A stretch of DNA of 64,000 bases from a virus. Lineage: Duplodnaviria > Caudoviricetes. The stretch is taken from the IMG/VR virus record IMGVR_UViG_3300013121_000027, positions 1 through 64,000 of that record. One strand, written 5' to 3'. The notes under the pieces are model-generated. The model was given only the letters and a program-made list of their open reading frames with translations, was not told the origin of the DNA and made no database searches. The position numbers were made by a program, and so were the translations under genes. Shown piece by piece: positions 4,955 through 40,235 of this stretch (position 1 is its first letter; the number at the start of each line of letters is the position of its first letter).

Positions 4955-5206
4955 ATGCCAGAAGTATCCCAATACACTCTTGACTCATTAAAAAAGTTGG
5001 AGCAACGCGATCAAGAAGACGCAGCGCGAGCGCAAGCGAGCGCTGCTCCCACTCTTGAGTCTCTTGCGAAAGAGATCGCAGAACTGAAGGACGAAGTTCA
5101 TATACTTCGCGCCATCATTGATATCCACAATCAAGTCAATGTAACACAGGCTCAAATCAATCAAGAAGTTATCAAAAAACTTCGATTGTTTGGCATCATT
5201 ATCTAA
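4955..5206 (+). CDS. Hypothetical coiled-coil protein
   Basis: AAGGA RBS before ATG 4955. Confidence 0.6.
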   Translation: MPEVSQYTLDSLKKLEQRDQEDAARAQASAAPTLESLAKEIAELKDEVHILRAIIDIHNQVNVTQAQINQEVIKKLRLFGIII

Positions 5207-6186
5207 CTCGATCAGACGAGTAAAAATAGGAGTTTAAGTCTGATGCGTCCCTACCTGAAATTAAGTCAAAGGGGTAGGGGGTACTCAAGTCCCTGTGAGC
5301 TAATCCGCGCTCGGCATGTAGTCTTTAAATATTTTTGTGATATCACTATTGGCGTAGAAGATTTCGGATTATCGCCAAACAATCGTATCTATGTAGATTC
5401 TATAATCATAGATACACCTTTCAAACAATTATTATCTTGCTCAAATTAACATATGCTAAAGTCCCATAAAGTTATATATTTATGGGCATTGGGTTGAGTT
5501 CTAAAAAGGTGCTATTGAGTTCGATTAGTTCTGCTCATAGAAATGGATCTTCCAGCCTTCTATGCTCCAAATGCTAAGTCTATTGGGAAATAAACTTTGC
5601 GTTTGCCCCTTCATCTTTTTGATAGTTTGTTACGGGAATGTAAAATACTATGGACTACTCTTGTGTTATATCTGCAATGCGACAAGATATACCATAATAC
5701 CATTGAATTATAGCAATGGAAAATTTACATTCCCTTAAGAGATTATCAAAAGGAGTAATTAAATGATTGCTGCTTCAACACAAACAGAAGATATTCGTGG
5801 AGGAATTCTCTTTGTAGTTGTATTTGGTTTAGGAATTGGCTTTCTTTGGCTGATTACCCGCAATGCAACTATTTATCCGCCTCAGAAAAAGAGGGGAAGG
5901 AAAACTTCCTAAAAATCGTATCTTAAGTACTTAATTAATATGTGGAAATCTTAAGAACGCCTTACTCAATAACCTGAGAGTAATGGGTTGCATAGTTGGG
6001 TAACGCTATGTGACAAGCAAGTAAAACACTTAAAAGTCCCAGTCATGAGGAGACGTCTTGCCGTCTGTTATACCCCCCGCATGACTGGGCACTGATCTCG
6101 TATGTACCTCCTATATCATTGTGTGTACAAAAGGGTTTTACGGCTTTCCTTTAAAAACCGTATTGATCTAATAAGGAGACAAATGG

Positions 6187-10365: not shown

Positions 10366-10508
10366 GTCATTGTCCTTTGATCGAAGAATTCCCTTTCTAT
10401 AGTACCTTGAAGAATTGATTTCTTTTAAAGAGGAAAAAGAGGGGAACCTAAATCTTCTTCCACCTGCCGGGGGAAGATCAGTTCACGATCTGATTAAAAA
10501 TCGCACTT

Positions 10509-10597
10509 GTCCGGTTATTCAGGAGACGTGGTAAATCCATCTTTCAGTTGGGTTGTCAACGAAACTGCGCATGGGTTCGATTCCCTAAACCGGCACT
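10509..10597 (+). ncRNA. tRNA-like RNA (non-canonical or degenerate)
   Basis: ccggtt/aaccgg acceptor-like stem, GGGTTCGATTCCC T-arm, GG-containing D-like loop; no clean anticodon arm. Confidence 0.4.
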
Positions 10598-10635
10598 AAT
10601 AGATCCTGGCAGCTGTGCACAACATCGACAGCGGC

Positions 10636-11127
10636 TCAATTTAAGGTGAAACGATAATGTATGCCAGTCTTGTAGTTTGGATTATTCAACCCCTTTGAGC
10701 TTGTTTTAAAAGCTTCACTTCTACAAGAAATAGAACAAAAAGGATTTTCTGGATTTCTTACTTGCTTCTCATAACGTTTGAATAATTTAAAACATTGAGC
10801 ACAAATCCAATCTTTTCGTGTATCCTGTCCTCTTCTGCATGTTCCTACTTGTCCTCCAGAAGAAGAATTGTATCCTATTTTAGGATCACATGATTTAAAA
10901 TAAGATATCCAAAAAATTTCACGATCATTTAAGATTTCATCTTCGCATTCTTCGATTAACTCAATTTTGAAAAATTCTCTACCGTATTTTCTTATTGCTC
11001 GTGAAATAGGCATTTTTTCGCTTTTAGATGTACAATGCCTACTGAATCTTTCGTTTAATGGACGTATCGTTTGTCCAATATATACTTTATTATTTGACAA
11101 ACAAGTTATTTTGTAAATATTTCCCAT
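10636..11127 (-). CDS. GIY-YIG homing endonuclease
   Basis: NIYKIT...VYIGQT...R...E motif plus C-terminal Zn ribbon; TGATATAAT 6 nt before ATG. Confidence 0.9.
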   Translation of the reverse strand: MGNIYKITCLSNNKVYIGQTIRPLNERFSRHCTSKSEKMPISRAIRKYGREFFKIELIEECEDEILNDREIFWISYFKSCDPKIGYNSSSGGQVGTCRRGQDTRKDWICAQCFKLFKRYEKQVRNPENPFCSISCRSEAFKTSSKGLNNPNYKTGIHYRFTLN

Positions 11128-24218: not shown

Positions 24219-24650
24219 TTAATCTCTTTTTCTTCCCATGTAATCTACATTTTTCTCCCTATACTCTTTTCTCCATTGTTTACATAAATTACATCTACAT
24301 TTTTCTTTGTTATACATATGTCCACTTCCATGATTATAATCATCAATTCTATTGTGTCCTCCGCCAAATTCTCCATTTAATTTAGTTTTTAATTCATGAT
24401 GATCTTTACATAGCAATTGACATTTGGTTAATTCTTTTAAATAATCTTTTTTGTTAATCGACCATAGTTTAGATATTGGAAAAGCTTTCGTTTTTGGATT
24501 AATATGATCTATTTCCAATTTCTCTGTCGTTTGACAAATTATACAACAACCTCCTAAAATTTCTATTGATTCTTTTCTTCTTTCATAATATCTTTCTAAG
24601 ATCTTTTTTTTCATATATTCATTATATTGATCTTTATCTTTTAAACTCAT
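24219..24650 (-). CDS. HNH homing endonuclease (paralogue of 16146 and 40291)
   Basis: CIIC..LEIDHINP...KCQLLCKDHH; HG...CRCNLC. Confidence 0.88.
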   Translation of the reverse strand: MSLKDKDQYNEYMKKKILERYYERRKESIEILGGCCIICQTTEKLEIDHINPKTKAFPISKLWSINKKDYLKELTKCQLLCKDHHELKTKLNGEFGGGHNRIDDYNHGSGHMYNKEKCRCNLCKQWRKEYREKNVDYMGRKRD

Positions 24651-24719: not shown

Positions 24720-24792
24720 GCGCCTTTAGCTCAGTTGGTAGAGCAGGACACTTTTAATGTCAAGGTCGTGGGTTCGAGCCCCACAGGGCGTA
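24720..24792 (+). tRNA. tRNA-Lys(TTT)
   Basis: gcgcctt/agggcgt acceptor, ctTTTaa loop, canonical D and T arms. Confidence 0.92.
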
Positions 24793-24802
24793 CAAAGTTT
24801 TT

Positions 24803-24838
24803 GCTCTTTTAATTGGGGTTCGAGCCCCACGGAAGGTA
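24803..24838 (+). pseudogene. 3' remnant of a second tRNA-Lys
   Basis: cttttaa loop followed by ggg-ttcgagc-cccac and ggaaggta. Confidence 0.55.
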
Positions 24839-24841
24839 CTT

Positions 24842-26752: not shown

Positions 26753-26785
26753 AGGGGTATCGTCTAACGGTTAAGGCACTGAGCT
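26753..26785 (+). pseudogene. 5' half of a split tRNA-Gln
   Basis: AGGGGTATCGTCTAACGGTTAAGGCACTGAGCT; ends at U33. Confidence 0.8.
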
Positions 26786-27434
26786 ATATTAAATTATAAA
26801 GTTTTGCTCTTTTTCTAACTGCATTATCTGATACTCCAAATATTTTTCCTGCTTGTACAAAATTTGTTGTTTTAAGAATTTTTTCTAACTCTTCTTTTGT
26901 AGGATTAAATTTTCTTAAATGAGATCTTCCAATTTTATTTCTTTCTTTTTCTTCTTTATCTTTTAACTTCTTTTCTAAATTTCTTCCTGCATAGCTTTGT
27001 GTTTGTGTATGACAATTAGGACATAGAATTTGTAGATTTTCTATTCTATGATCATTATATATTCCATTAATATGATCTAATTGTAAAGTTAATGGTTTTC
27101 CATTCCATTCTGATCCAATTTTACATTCATTACATTTTTCTTCTAATATATTATTTTGATAAAGTTTTTTCTTTATCAAATCTCTGTTTGTATATAAAGA
27201 ATTTTCTTTAAAAATATCTTCCCATGGAATCATTATATAACCTCTGGCATGGTTTATATTACTTTTTCCTATTTTGGGTTTTAGTCCAAATTCTTTACAT
27301 GCGTTATGAAATGCTTTAAAATTTCCTCCAGCAGATCTTAATCCTAAAAACTTTAAAGCATCTGAGATACTTTCTGTTTTCTCTATAGCTTCTTTGAGTT
27401 CTTCTCTATTTTGTAGTATACTTCTTGTTCTCAT
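26784..27434 (-). CDS. HNH homing endonuclease inserted in tRNA-Gln
   Basis: CNEC...LQLDHINGIYNDHRIENLQILCPNCH; C-terminal HTH-like GVSDNAVRKR. Confidence 0.9.
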   Translation of the reverse strand: MRTRSILQNREELKEAIEKTESISDALKFLGLRSAGGNFKAFHNACKEFGLKPKIGKSNINHARGYIMIPWEDIFKENSLYTNRDLIKKKLYQNNILEEKCNECKIGSEWNGKPLTLQLDHINGIYNDHRIENLQILCPNCHTQTQSYAGRNLEKKLKDKEEKERNKIGRSHLRKFNPTKEELEKILKTTNFVQAGKIFGVSDNAVRKRAKLYNLI

Positions 27435-27445
27435 TATTATTCCTT

Positions 27446-27527
27446 TGGGGAGTAGCCGACATTGGTATAGGCATCAGCCTTTGGAGCTGACGCGAAAGCA
27501 TTGAGGGTTCGATTCCTTCCTCCCCAA
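27446..27527 (+). tRNA. tRNA-Gln(TTG) with a long variable arm
   Basis: tggggag/ctcccca acceptor, tcagc-ctTTGga-gctga, variable region cgcgaaagcatt. Confidence 0.88.
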
Positions 27528-27567
27528 CTGCTACTTCATGTAGTAATTCTATTTATTGGCAAACTAA

Positions 27568-27596
27568 CATTTAGGGTTCGAATCCTTATACCCCTA
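27568..27596 (+). pseudogene. 3' half of the split tRNA-Gln
   Basis: CATT-TAGGG-TTCGAAT-CCTTA-TACCCCT-A; TACCCCT pairs 7/7 with AGGGGTA at 26753. Confidence 0.8.
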
Positions 27597-27598
27597 CT

Positions 27599-36675: not shown

Positions 36676-37024
36676 CTTGGAATGATCTGAGGTTTCTTAA
36701 TGAATAATAAATCGCAAAATGCATGGTTGAAAACTCAAACTGCATGGACGTTGATTATTGTTCTTATGCTATTGAATCTTTCTCCTATTGCAATTATTGT
36801 ATTTATTCTTTGGCTTTTTAACGTGGAGTAATTCAATGTTTTTCAAAAAGACAAAAGAACAGCTGATTCAGAAATCAGAAAATATAACCTCAATTCTAAC
36901 TTTCAAGTTGGATGAGGCTAATAGGAATCTTATTAAAGTTTCCGACGTAGCTTCTACCCTTCTTGCTCTTTTAATGATGAATATGTTAGTTCTCACGGTA
37001 GCTGTCATATTCCTTATTTTTTAG

Positions 37025-37520
37025 ATCTGAGACTCAATTGCGTCAGACAAGAAAAAGATGGATCCCGTTAGTTCGCCCACGCTCGCAAGAGGCAGTGCTT
37101 AGGATTGAAACGATAGCTTCTATTATCTGATTGAGTTAAAATCAGAAGGTTCAGTCAAGAACCTTTTTTGAGGTTTGCGCAAAACCAATAAATAAATAGC
37201 TTTTATAAGAACTTTACTTTGTGAAAAGTAGATGACTTTCTCCCAGTAAATGGTAGGTTCATTAAGTTGAACTGGATTCAAAAAGAGAAGAATTTCTTTA
37301 TAAAAGAGTGATACAGGTGGAGTACCTGAGGGTGTGATGATACCTTAGTATCCTAACCATGAGTTTGGTAGAGCTTATGTAAAAGTAGAGTTTACTCGTG
37401 ATTTAAAAGAGACGATCTTATTAACTTATTTTAATAAATCAAGCGCTTTTAATACAGGTGACGACGATCTGTAGAGCTTGTCAGTTGCTGTAAAATTGGA
37501 ACTGTCGCTTTCACAGGAAG
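37025..37520 (+). ncRNA. Candidate large ncRNA (~500 nt)
   Basis: No credible ORF; many short hairpins; upstream of the tRNA-Pro locus. Confidence 0.4.
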
Positions 37521-37527
37521 GACAAGT

Positions 37528-37938
37528 ATGGGATATCGTAAAAGAAATATAGATCCAGATCCTGTTTGTCCAACTTGTGGAAAATATAAAGAATATAGAG
37601 TTCTTCATGGTGTTTATATAAAGCACGGACGAGTCTATAATAGACCCGCTAGAAACTGGACTACTAAAATTATTTTTTCTAAAAGATTAAATAAATTTAT
37701 AAGTAGAAAAATAGCAGATGAAAATCCAACCGTTAGAACTCGCGTCAATAAAAAGAAGTATCGTATACCATTTGATCGCGTAAGAAAATATGCTTTTTGT
37801 TCCGATCCTTTCCATGATTATATTTCTAAAGAAGATCGTCCAAAAGAAAAAGTTATACCACCAAAAGTTCACAATCCTGACTTAACTGAAAAGAAAAAAT
37901 TAATGAAACGCGATCTTCAAGGAAAACATCGTCGTTAA
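37528..37938 (+). CDS. Basic hypothetical protein (Zn ribbon)
   Basis: AAGGA RBS; CPTCG...CSDPFH. Confidence 0.65.
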   Translation: MGYRKRNIDPDPVCPTCGKYKEYRVLHGVYIKHGRVYNRPARNWTTKIIFSKRLNKFISRKIADENPTVRTRVNKKKYRIPFDRVRKYAFCSDPFHDYISKEDRPKEKVIPPKVHNPDLTEKKKLMKRDLQGKHRR

Positions 37939-37955
37939 CATTTTGTAAAAGTGAT

Positions 37956-37984
37956 TTGACAGCTTTTTCAATCATTTGTATACT
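37956..37984 (+). promoter_or_regulatory. Sigma70-type promoter
   Basis: TTGACA-17-TATACT upstream of the tRNA-Pro remnant. Confidence 0.75.
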
Positions 37985-38023
37985 AGCAATTACTAACTAA
38001 TAGCTATTAAACTTTTTTATTTA

Positions 38024-38064
38024 CGGGACGTAGCTCAGCTTGGTAGCGCACCTGCTTTTGGTGC
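38024..38064 (+). pseudogene. 5' part of a truncated tRNA-Pro
   Basis: CGGGACGTAGCTCAGCTTGGTAGCGCACCTGC followed by a mutated loop; no T arm. Confidence 0.75.
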
Positions 38065-38081
38065 AAAAAATCCAAACTTGA

Positions 38082-38276
38082 TCTTCTGCCAACGACTACT
38101 ATGGGATTAAGTGTTGTAATGAAAACTGCCTTTTAACCGTTAAACAAATTAATATTCCAAAAGAACTTATAGATGTCCATCATATTGATGGCAATAGAAG
38201 TAACAATAATTTAGATAATTTAATACCTCTTTGCGTATGGTGTCATGCTATCACAACAAGAAATGTTATACTATAA
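38082..38276 (+). pseudogene. HNH endonuclease remnant (no start codon)
   Basis: Frame reads KCCNENC...IDVHHIDGNRSNNNLDNLIPLCVWCHA. Confidence 0.8.
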
Positions 38277-38283
38277 AATTTAC

Positions 38284-38354
38284 CGGGCATTGGTATAGTG
38301 GTAAAACACTTGCTTTGGGAGCAAGAGTCACAGATTCGATTTCTGTATGCCCGA
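38284..38354 (+). tRNA. tRNA-Pro(TGG)
   Basis: cgggcat/atgcccg acceptor, cttgc-ttTGGga-gcaag. Confidence 0.88.
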
Positions 38355-38357
38355 CTT

Positions 38358-38693
38358 ATGGAACCTTATAAACTAGATCAAGAATTTCTTGAAGCAAAAT
38401 CTCTTTTAGAAAATCTTTTTGCGCAGCTTCAACAATTAGAAGTCCTTGGATCTTTAAATCAATCTCTTATTCCAGAAACGATTGAAATCATGAAAATGAT
38501 GTTTAATCGCATTATTGAATTAGATTGCATGTTTGATAAATCTGATGATTTTGCTTTGCGTCTTAATCAAGCTTTATCTAAAGCAGATCCAGTAGCCGCA
38601 CTTCCCCTTGCTATTGAAGGGGTAGTCCTTCTTGATGATGTAGATGATCTTATTGCTAATTTCATATTTAAAGTTGATTCTGATGAAACATGA
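38358..38693 (+). CDS. Hypothetical protein
   Basis: ATG directly after tRNA-Pro. Confidence 0.6.
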   Translation: MEPYKLDQEFLEAKSLLENLFAQLQQLEVLGSLNQSLIPETIEIMKMMFNRIIELDCMFDKSDDFALRLNQALSKADPVAALPLAIEGVVLLDDVDDLIANFIFKVDSDET

Positions 38694-39047
38694 TTTCACT
38701 AATCAAGCCGCTATCATAAAAGGATATTATCTTAATCATGAAGGTTCGACCCATTACGAAGATTGCTGGAAATCGCACCCCCGTTGTGCTATTTCGCGAC
38801 TTACTCACATCGTCTTCTGTGCCGAGGAAGAAATCAAAAGGCTCGAAAAAGCGTTAGGTGAGCAAACTGAGTCTGTTCGTAAATGGAAAAATCGCGAACA
38901 TTCAAAATCTAAAAGACTCGCTAAAGCTCGTCAAGAAGCAGAACATCTTAAATCTATTATTAAGCTTCTTAAACCATCTCCATCTAATGTAAACAACTTC
39001 AAAAATAGATGGAATAACAAAAAAAAGCTATAACAGAAAGGTAAGCT

Positions 39048-40235
39048 ATGGTACGTACATACGACATCCTTGATTCCGATGGAAATGAGGGTCGTGCGCA
39101 ATATAAAAGTCCCATTAAGAAATATGTTGCATTGGGAGTTGTTGGGGTTTTCCTCTTCATTTCTTTCATTGTAATCCTTGTTGGGGCTTCTCTCAACCGT
39201 GTTTCTGCCAATGAATGGGGTTGTCTGTACGGTGGCGGTCTTTATGAAAGCCACGGTTTGAAGGAAACCATTGCGCCAGGTAAGTCTGGTGGCATGACGA
39301 TTTTCGACACAATGAAAACCGTTCCTTCGGATGATCGGTTTTACTTTATCGATACAGATCCAAATACCGCAGACATTGGCGCAACTCCCATCATTGTCCC
39401 CGCACAGGGCACCTCAGACGAGTCTCAGGGCATTGTGAATGTAAGTGTTGAGGTTCAGGTTCGTTTCGTTATTAACGAGAACGCCTGTCAGCTTTACACT
39501 TCTAAACTCAAGCGTCTTGAACCACTCAACTTTGATACTCCCAGCGGTAAGTCTCCTGGTGGTTGGGGAAGCTTCCTTAATACTCAGTTGAATCAGGCAC
39601 TCATCAAGGCTTCTCGTCCTTTGGTTGCCCCATATAACTACATTCAATTGTATTCCAATAGTCAGATTCAAGTTGACGGTAAGAATACCCTTGTCTATGA
39701 CTTTATGGAAACTGAGTATGCTCAAAAGCTTACTGATGAGTTGAATACCACTCTTGGTGGTACTTTCTTCTGTGGACCCACGTATCGTTATGATGGTCAT
39801 GTTGATGGCGATTTCGATAATGGTTGTCCTCCGATTGAAGTTACCGTTAAGCGTGTTGCCCCAACTGATCCACAGCTGATCACTAACCTTGAGACTACTG
39901 TTAAGAACCAGGAACAGATCAAGGTGATTAAGTCCGAGCAAGAAAAGAAGCTTGCTCAGACTGCCGCAGATCAGGCAACTCAGCTTGCTGAAATCAAGCG
40001 TCAACAAGAAGTTGAAACTGCTCAGGCAGCCAAGGATCTTGTTGTTGCGCAGGCACAGAAGCAACTCTTCCTTGCGCAGAATGAAAATGCTCAAGTGAAG
40101 GCTCTTGCTGAAACTGCATTCTGTACTCAGCTTGCTGAAATTGGCGTAAACTGCGCTGATTATTGGGCATCAATGAATTGGCGCCCAACCACAATTCTTA
40201 GCGATGCAACTGGCGTTAACGTCAATTTGAAGTAG
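39048..40235 (+). CDS. SPFH/Band-7-like membrane protein
   Basis: N-terminal TM helix, SPFH-like core, Ala/Gln-rich coiled coil. Confidence 0.7.
   Translation: MVRTYDILDSDGNEGRAQYKSPIKKYVALGVVGVFLFISFIVILVGASLNRVSANEWGCLYGGGLYESHGLKETIAPGKSGGMTIFDTMKTVPSDDRFYFIDTDPNTADIGATPIIVPAQGTSDESQGIVNVSVEVQVRFVINENACQLYTSKLKRLEPLNFDTPSGKSPGGWGSFLNTQLNQALIKASRPLVAPYNYIQLYSNSQIQVDGKNTLVYDFMETEYAQKLTDELNTTLGGTFFCGPTYRYDGHVDGDFDNGCPPIEVTVKRVAPTDPQLITNLETTVKNQEQIKVIKSEQEKKLAQTAADQATQLAEIKRQQEVETAQAAKDLVVAQAQKQLFLAQNENAQVKALAETAFCTQLAEIGVNCADYWASMNWRPTTILSDATGVNVNLK

Follow-up and report, generated by a model that had tools for sequence, protein, structure and literature searches.

We propose that the tRNA-Pro locus described here is the relic of a homing cassette, a unit made of an HNH endonuclease gene and a tRNA gene, that displaced the resident tRNA-Pro gene of a large phage and then lost its nuclease, a history to which we assign a probability of roughly 0.6. 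The phage is uncultured and comes from wastewater; its IMG/VR record is 231,459 bp long with direct terminal repeats, and the window, by which we mean the whole stretch of DNA that was analysed, is the first 64 kb (64,000 nt) of that record and has a G+C content of 37%. The genome holds 22 tRNA genes scattered across its first 100 kb, and the complete tRNA-Pro of this locus is the sole tRNA-Pro that ARAGORN calls in all 231 kb. Upstream of it, on the same strand, lie a predicted promoter, the 5′ fragment of a second and very different tRNA-Pro and the 3′ remnant of an HNH gene (Table 1). Whether the locus arose through a cassette or through a single deletion, a divergent tRNA-Pro linked to a nuclease, itself now dead, has replaced one of bacterial type; the locus is a non-functional relic of a layout that is better studied in its intact copies.

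Table 1. Features of the tRNA-Pro locus and of the related tRNA-Gln and tRNA-Ala loci of the same genome (coordinates of the phage record)
Feature	Position	Strand	Basis or remarks
Sigma-70-type promoter TTGACA-17-TATACT, predicted	37956..37984	+	11/12 consensus positions; top site in 37500-38800
tRNA-Pro(UGG) 5′ fragment, 42 nt, canonical bacterial type, pseudogene piece	38024..38065	+	39/42 identity
Junction between tRNA piece and HNH piece	38066..38081	+	Contains 10-mer CCAAACTTGA at 38072-38081
HNH homing-endonuclease 3′ remnant, 64 codons and TAA	38082..38276	+	Stop-to-stop frame 38082-38273; TAA 38274-38276
Possible extended -10 TGtTATACT, in HNH 3′ end	38264..38272	+	Read from sequence; 11 nt before tRNA
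Complete divergent tRNA-Pro(UGG)	38284..38354	+	Rfam 62.6 bits (cut-off 29); ARAGORN
tRNA-Gln locus	26753-27598		HNH 26784-27434, minus strand
tRNA-Ala locus	89436-90098		HNH 89512-89955, minus strand; full tRNA-Ala 89970-90042

The upstream end of the locus carries what is left of a tRNA gene of ordinary bacterial type. The best among the matches listed, tRNA-Pro(UGG) genes of Bacillota (Paenibacillaceae, Leuconostoc and Weissella), are identical to the fragment at 39 of its 42 positions, which comprise the acceptor 5′ strand, the D-arm and the anticodon stem-loop up to the third nucleotide of the 3′ stem strand. A strict search pattern derived from the fragment, with a canonical anticodon loop, matches at least 120 bacterial tRNA-Pro(UGG) genes, those among the matches listed belonging mostly to Paenibacillaceae, with Leuconostoc, Weissella and relatives in addition; we rejected this distribution as evidence on the identity of the host. 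The fragment differs from the canonical gene by three changes (standard tRNA numbering): A23C, which disrupts the 12-23 pair of the D-stem, G35U, which converts the anticodon from UGG to UUG, and A38U. The point at which tRNA homology ends is independently fixed by bacterial tRNA-Pro contigs from four metagenomes, because these align only from 38024 to 38062-38066 and then diverge into a normal variable loop and T-arm. ARAGORN makes no tRNA call here, and we regard the 42 nt as a fragment and not a gene because they are absent from the matches to Rfam RF00005 even at E <= 10. The 3′ half that would complete the old tRNA-Pro was not found in a search of 4 kb on either side of the locus, in contrast to the tRNA-Gln and tRNA-Ala loci and to locus L273 described below, where the 3′ half of the broken tRNA does exist. 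The promoter lies 39 nt upstream of the fragment and presumably was that of the original tRNA-Pro gene. No plus-strand terminator was found between it and position 38354, and transcription from it presumably now extends across the relic as far as the intact tRNA-Pro. The open reading frame further upstream (37528-37938) and those downstream of the locus match no Pfam or PHROG family.

The piece that follows is the pseudogene remnant of an HNH homing endonuclease. Its 64-codon frame holds no ATG, GTG or TTG, and it scores 26.7 bits against HNH_3 (PF13392; cut-off 24.8, E = 4e-6) and 17.0 bits against PF01844, which is under the cut-off of 21.4. Its best matches among 5.8 billion proteins are four proteins of 169-177 aa (P0001-P0004), 62-71% identical over 94-97% of the fragment, the top one a 169-aa protein at E = 1.7e-23. 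Aligned to those of 169 aa (P0001-P0003, 63-71% identity), the remnant covers residues 105-169 and the C-terminal ends coincide, while the N-terminal ~105 aa of the relatives, a Zn-ribbon or zf-FCS-like region that contains three more Cys pairs and in some members matches Pfam zf-FCS, have no counterpart in it. No homologue of 35-112 aa occurs among the same 5.8 billion proteins, and the remnant is therefore a gene that has lost its 5′ two-thirds and not a member of a family of small nucleases. The upstream frame 37528-37938 was considered as the missing N-terminus of the nuclease and rejected on comparison. The part that survives preserves the two Cys pairs and the catalytic core (HH..N..N), and residues C11, C16, H33, H34, N38, N46, C51, C54 and H55 correspond to invariant columns in an alignment of 13 sequences. 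The presence of all the catalytic and Zn-binding residues in a 64-codon frame that is still open suggests a recent loss of the nuclease.

Only 7 nt separate the stop codon of the remnant from the complete tRNA-Pro(UGG), whose features include the pair C1-G72, A73, and G35, G36 and G37, and which does not encode its CCA end. Bacterial tRNA-Pro resembles the upstream fragment far more than it resembles this tRNA, and two pattern scans of viral contigs found the divergent tRNA-Pro nowhere else. Local alignment of each tRNA to its own flanks gave no link between the two tRNA-Pro copies, which are too different from one another, and this difference speaks against a recent duplication. The possible extended -10 in the 3′ end of the remnant is a putative promoter element with no -35 element, for which reason it was omitted by our promoter scan. 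Judged from its sequence, the complete tRNA-Pro appears to be the only working part of the locus. The original prediction had named a TTGACA-17-TATACT promoter, a tRNA-Pro 5′ part ending past a mutated anticodon loop, a start-less HNH fragment and a full divergent tRNA-Pro(UGG) that gives the same isotype on both sides of the nuclease, and each of these is borne out by the features above; the spacing of 8 nt that it gave between the HNH piece and the complete tRNA is corrected to 7 nt.

The locus is present in public runs from activated sludge, sludge and aquaculture metagenomes. Contigs from other studies span 37921-38116 and 38216-38412 with 0-2 differences, showing that the arrangement is real and not an assembly artefact. 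The covered regions of four metagenome runs contained neither alternative joints nor a form with an intact nuclease, and the relic form is unchanged across several metagenomes. A sister phage was found neither by megablast of 37000-39500 against phage records nor when viral contigs were scanned for a protein of 873 aa encoded nearby, and neither the phage records nor the viral contigs yielded an unbroken tRNA-Pro at the corresponding spot in such a phage.

The HNH family from which the remnant derives is tied to phage tRNA genes. We gathered relatives from viral and metagenome contigs, annotated the tRNAs around them and retained 112 non-redundant loci with at least 100 aa aligned. A tRNA lies within flanks of 2.5-3 kb on each side in 59 of these 112 full-length relatives, and a same-strand tRNA starts between -15 and +60 nt from the stop codon in 30 of them, against 2 of 72 HNH genes that match in the core only. 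The stop abuts or overlaps the start of the tRNA at 20 loci, and at 18 of these 20 the reading frame runs without a stop of its own into the tRNA and terminates in its first 15 nt, seven times at the TAG formed by U8-A9-G10, from which we conclude that nuclease and tRNA form one unit without a spacer. Of the 30 downstream neighbours, 14 are tRNA-Ala (background 9.6%, p = 2e-7); of 26 upstream neighbours, 7 are tRNA-Ala and 4 are tRNA-Pro (p = 0.04). Among the loci closest to our remnant, L273, L274, L275 and L271 have tRNA-Pro as an immediate neighbour. Replacement of a resident tRNA is not the rule of the family, since 24 of the 28 members with a tRNA right after the stop have no same-isotype flanking, and the majority of members are positioned between unrelated, intact tRNAs. 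A tblastn search with P0001 against 50,697 phage records gave three matches, none of them in T4 or T5. Vibrio phage nt-1 carries a distant member of the family with no annotated tRNA beside it.

Intact counterparts of the layout exist in other genomes, and they provide the context in which the relic is best read. The original prediction linked the nuclease to pairs of tRNA-Pro genes, and at L273 an intact homologue (protein P0006, 52-55% identical to the remnant) indeed sits between the pieces of a broken UGG tRNA and is directly followed by a full tRNA-Pro(UGG). The order there is a tRNA 5′ piece, a TTGACA-17-TACACT promoter, the intact HNH gene, the full tRNA-Pro(UGG) at 605-682 and a tRNA 3′ piece. 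The 5′ piece has the anticodon UGG and is broken directly past the anticodon loop; the 3′ piece, ~50 nt past the full tRNA, consists of a T-loop, five nucleotides, a seven-nucleotide acceptor strand, which forms pairs with nucleotides 1-7 of the 5′ piece, and ACCA. The isotype of the 5′ piece is based on its anticodon and on this acceptor pairing, its overall similarity to tRNA-Pro being weak. At locus L282, a tRNA-Gly(UCC) is truncated past ~position 46 and separated by 35 nt from an intact HNH gene, of 182 aa, that terminates within a full tRNA-Gly(UCC); as at the tRNA-Pro locus, the 3′ tRNA half is absent.

The phage genome itself holds further examples. The family profile retrieves two more members elsewhere in the genome. 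At the tRNA-Ala locus, an HNH gene and a full tRNA-Ala are nested between the halves of a canonical tRNA-Ala that has kept its G3:U70 pairing, a layout that recurs in another phage (L090) with different break points. The tRNA-Gln locus follows a matching design with an HNH gene that, as the original prediction had it, belongs to a different subfamily: it has only the catalytic core in common with our remnant (34% identity over 29 aa), and the family profile search of the genome did not retrieve it. The broken and the carried tRNA agree in isotype at all three loci of the genome (Pro, Gln and Ala). The further suggestion that replacement recurs and follows a cycle of birth and decay holds in part. 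The recurrence of the layout is seen at L273, L282, L090 and the tRNA-Ala locus, and the tRNA-Pro locus is a decayed stage of it; breakage of the resident tRNA by the cassette is not borne out at this locus, where the 3′ half is lacking, and the cycle itself would be assembled from stages in different genomes.

The 16 nt between the tRNA fragment and the HNH remnant carry a further possible trace of the nuclease gene. The same 10-mer, CCAAACTTGA, directly follows the tRNA piece both here and in L273, where it forms the predicted -35 region of the HNH promoter. A common 10-mer arose in 10 of 5000 shuffles (p about 0.002-0.01, for a comparison chosen post hoc), the 10-mer has only four matches in 2.2 Mb of related loci, and none of 110 upstream regions of other family members has a common stretch longer than 9 nt. 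It may be a leftover of the upstream region of the nuclease gene, a weak and post hoc hint, and to the same degree it hints that the left junction predates the deletion in the nuclease. A 9-mer that the locus has in common with L271 was set aside as a chance, promoter-like match.

The model that most reasonably accommodates these observations would begin with a canonical bacterial-type tRNA-Pro(UGG) behind the promoter that is still in place. A mobile unit, consisting of a gene for an HNH protein of ~169 aa, with N-terminal Zn-ribbons for DNA binding and a C-terminal HNH core, tightly joined to the 5′ end of its own divergent tRNA-Pro(UGG), would then have come to lie in the resident gene, the likely route being a break made by the nuclease in the resident tRNA gene followed by repair copied from a cassette-bearing genome. 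The resident gene would thereby have been reduced to its first 42 nt, and the tRNA-Pro of the cassette, presumably without the cut site, would have taken over decoding. After fixation nothing would have kept the nuclease, and a deletion of ~380 nt may have removed the -10 of its promoter along with the start codon and the ~105 codons at the 5′ end. The surviving tRNA-Pro would now be transcribed either from the old promoter, by way of a dead leader of ~290 nt, or from the weak -10 at 38264. RNase P and 3′ processing, together with addition of CCA, would then free it from the transcript, the tRNA and HNH fragments in front of it probably being functionless. That the nuclease cut tRNA genes, that the carried tRNA resisted it and that the events fell in this order we infer.

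Several observations count against such a displacement. No 3′ half of the old gene lies within 4 kb, unlike at the tRNA-Gln and tRNA-Ala loci and L273; the truncation points of tRNA and HNH gene are 16 nt apart, as would also be expected from one deletion; most family members stand among unrelated intact tRNAs; and neither a sister phage with an unbroken tRNA-Pro nor a second copy of the cassette tRNA-Pro was found in the searches described above. The strongest alternative, which we consider about half as probable, is that a single deletion of ~400 nt between tandem tRNA-Pro genes ran from position 42 of the first tRNA into codon ~105 of the HNH gene. The nuclease would then have been a free-standing intergenic gene that never interrupted a tRNA, and the replacement would be an accident of which copy survived. 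Such a starting point is found in nature, as a complete tRNA-Pro stands directly upstream of an intact HNH gene at four loci (L274, L275, L283 and L313) and complete same-isotype pairs, all of tRNA-Ala, enclose the HNH gene at three (L293, L295 and L084), and one deletion would account at once for the closeness of the truncation points and for the lack of a 3′ tRNA-Pro half downstream. It would still need an earlier step that placed a second, very different tRNA-Pro and a nuclease beside the first, however, and at both L282 and L273 a truncated upstream tRNA is found alongside an intact nuclease. The 10-mer common to the HNH upstream region of L273 likewise suggests that cassette-derived sequence remains to the left of the deletion.

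Far less probable is that the pieces are still functional, the remnant as a mini-HNH of ~55-64 aa translated from a rare ATT or ATA start, or the tRNA fragment as a processing, leader or decoy element. The open frame of 64 codons with every catalytic and Zn-binding residue, and the identity of the relic in several metagenomes, are what such a role would produce, but the copies in the metagenomes belong to one and the same phage species, and their identity is for that reason uninformative on selection. Besides having none of the three usual start codons, the frame shows no Shine-Dalgarno-like sequence before its ATT and ATA codons, the DNA-binding N-terminal two-thirds of the protein are gone and no homologue of comparably small size (35-112 aa) is known among the proteins searched, while a D-stem pair of the tRNA piece is broken and its T-arm is missing. 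The least credible explanations are that a group I intron encoding the HNH protein lay in a single tRNA-Pro gene or that the locus is a chimeric assembly at a repeated tRNA sequence. In favour of the first, HNH genes in tRNA group I introns do exist, and at L057 and L071 HNH genes lie between the halves of a tRNA-Leu(UAA) with no internal tRNA; against it, neither the window nor 37900-38450 matches Intron_gpI, the downstream tRNA is complete by itself and there is no 3′ exon. Against the second stand the independent contigs from other studies that span both junctions.

Displacement of a resident tRNA-Pro by a nuclease-bearing unit has parallels in several known systems. Group I introns in the anticodon loops of tRNA genes, as in cyanobacterial tRNA-fMet and tRNA-Leu, encode homing endonucleases, and there too a nuclease gene lies within a tRNA gene, close to the anticodon arm, and host function is kept; there, however, function is kept by splicing, whereas the tRNA-Pro locus has no intron RNA, a second complete copy and a dead old gene. 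In the mitochondrial atp6 gene of Allomyces, an endonuclease gene reportedly brings a replacement 3′ end while the old end persists as a pseudogene, in an account due to Paquin and colleagues. Such fungal mitochondrial endonuclease genes similarly interrupt a needed gene, carry a substitute for it and leave the displaced part to decay alongside, although they do so in protein genes of organelles and replace a part, whereas the phage unit supplies a whole tRNA gene. Goddard and Burt are said to have described homing endonuclease genes as cycling through gain, fixation, degeneration and loss. A nuclease without its 5′ two-thirds after fixation, with its cargo persisting, would correspond to the stage of degeneration, although that model was based on intron- and intein-borne nucleases without a tRNA cargo. 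Engineered cleave-and-rescue drives follow a logic similar to that of a cassette that splits a tRNA gene and supplies a spare.

The closest known relatives in setting are the free-standing endonucleases of phage tRNA clusters. The F-TflI/II/IV enzymes (HegA) of phage T5 are, reportedly after Akulenko and colleagues, HNH endonucleases of the T5 tRNA region, and resemble our nuclease in being HNH-type, free-standing genes within a phage tRNA region. We saw no close sequence relation to them, since none of the three tblastn matches of P0001 falls in T5, and a full-text literature search found no report of a split-and-replace layout for these enzymes. SegB of phages T4 and T6 is likewise a selfish nuclease gene among phage tRNA genes with its site inside tRNA genes (PMC2330249; PMC13096335): in T4 this GIY-YIG enzyme recognises a T-arm motif of tRNA genes and causes the tRNA region to be inherited preferentially (PMC2330249). 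Across phages, the homologues of SegB show a statistical association with tRNAs, and they can amplify segments of tRNA genes and leave truncated nuclease copies beside tRNAs (PMC13096335). SegB differs from the nuclease of the tRNA-Pro locus, an HNH enzyme, in its GIY-YIG catalytic family and in lying between intact tRNA genes, and a broken resident tRNA with a same-isotype spare has not been described for it. A nuclease gene fused to a same-isotype spare of the broken resident tRNA is what sets the present layout apart from known tRNA-cluster endonucleases, and our full-text literature search found no paper on a nuclease fused to a spare tRNA of the isotype of the broken resident gene.

The usual explanations for tRNA genes in phages are codon usage and evasion of host defences that cut tRNAs. 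More tentatively than for the locus itself, and still short of thinking it probable, we suggest that the Zn-ribbon HNH family, together with other HNH and GIY-YIG families in this genome, might be natural cleave-and-rescue elements, which would cut a specific tRNA gene, travel fused to a cut-resistant copy of it and invade unrelated phages by using the universally conserved sequence of tRNAs as a portable stretch of homology. The tRNA-Pro locus would then be the degenerate end stage, with a divergent tRNA permanently replacing a host-like one, and selfish nucleases would be a main driver of turnover and divergence in phage tRNA repertoires. If it is routine for nuclease cassettes to overwrite the resident tRNA genes with their own copies, the traffic in selfish elements would account, as a by-product, for some of the diversity and oddity seen in phage tRNAs, and the relic would offer a dated snapshot in which a divergent gene has taken the place of a bacterial-type one and the driver is already dead. 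Similar footprints are worth seeking near phage tRNAs in the form of tRNA fragments and start-less pieces of nuclease genes, and the intact members of the family, those at L273 and L282 and the protein P0001, are candidates for tests of tRNA-gene-specific cleavage. Database proteins of the family often carry false C-terminal tails, seen for example in P0006, that arise from read-through translation of the adjacent tRNA.

In some relatives of this family the HNH reading frame runs up to, or into, the tRNA gene that follows it. In an intact counterpart of the window's start-less HNH remnant (locus L273, on another contig), the database protein P0006, of 218 aa, carries a C-terminal tail that is the adjacent tRNA-Pro gene translated by read-through. 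Among the 20 relatives whose stop codon abuts or overlaps the tRNA start, 18 have an HNH frame that terminates within tRNA nucleotides 1-15, seven of them at U8-A9-G10.

Beyond the window, on the whole phage genome (G000), a canonical tRNA-Ala is broken into two parts, the 5' one extending as far as roughly position 43, with GTGAA repeated at both junctions and G3:U70 retained. Between the halves lie a minus-strand HNH gene, of the same family as the remnant beside tRNA-Pro, and a complete tRNA-Ala, which is divergent and whose T-loop is unusual. Two other jumbo phages have an HNH gene flanked by tRNA-Leu(UAA)-like halves with no internal tRNA, and these may represent an intron-borne form of the split-tRNA/HNH theme.

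Coordinates of tRNA pieces, nuclease genes and the ribozyme match
Feature	Sequence	Position	Strand	Remark
Region with P0006 read-through tail and adjacent tRNA-Pro gene	L273	575-736		
Split tRNA-Ala, HNH and full tRNA-Ala	G000	89436-90098		outside window
tRNA-Leu(UAA)-like halves around HNH gene	L057	2807-3532		
tRNA-Leu(UAA)-like halves around HNH gene	L071	2842-3534		
GIY-YIG endonuclease gene	window	10636-11127	-	PF01541, zf-FCS-like finger
tRNA 3' half or tRNA-like element	window	10505-10598	+	adjoins GIY-YIG gene
Second tRNA-like piece	window	24794-24840	+	directly 3' of full tRNA-Lys (24720-24793)
Several T-arm/acceptor-like pieces in a run, then tRNA-like 5' start	G000	82540-82900		outside window
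Pistol ribozyme (RF02679) match	window	5206-5282	+	43.7 bits

The GIY-YIG gene is the third nuclease type to adjoin a tRNA piece in the phage genome; the element beside it comprises a T-arm and an acceptor strand, the latter nearly pairing with sequence about 90 nt upstream. Elsewhere in the window, the piece following tRNA-Lys resembles an anticodon loop, T-arm and acceptor, its T-arm being identical to that of the full tRNA-Lys over 15 nt, and the 143-aa ORF upstream (24219-24650, minus strand) matched no Pfam family. The run of pieces outside the window sits just downstream of a suppressor tRNA with a CUA anticodon (82082-82155).

Among the matches listed in a pattern scan, tRNA-Pro(UGG) genes from Paenibacillaceae, Leuconostoc, Weissella and Fructobacillus share all 31 nt at the 5' end of the old tRNA-Pro fragment (window 38024-38054), which is at most a weak lead towards a Bacillota host. 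The window also holds a Pistol ribozyme match, scoring above the gathering score of 34.5.
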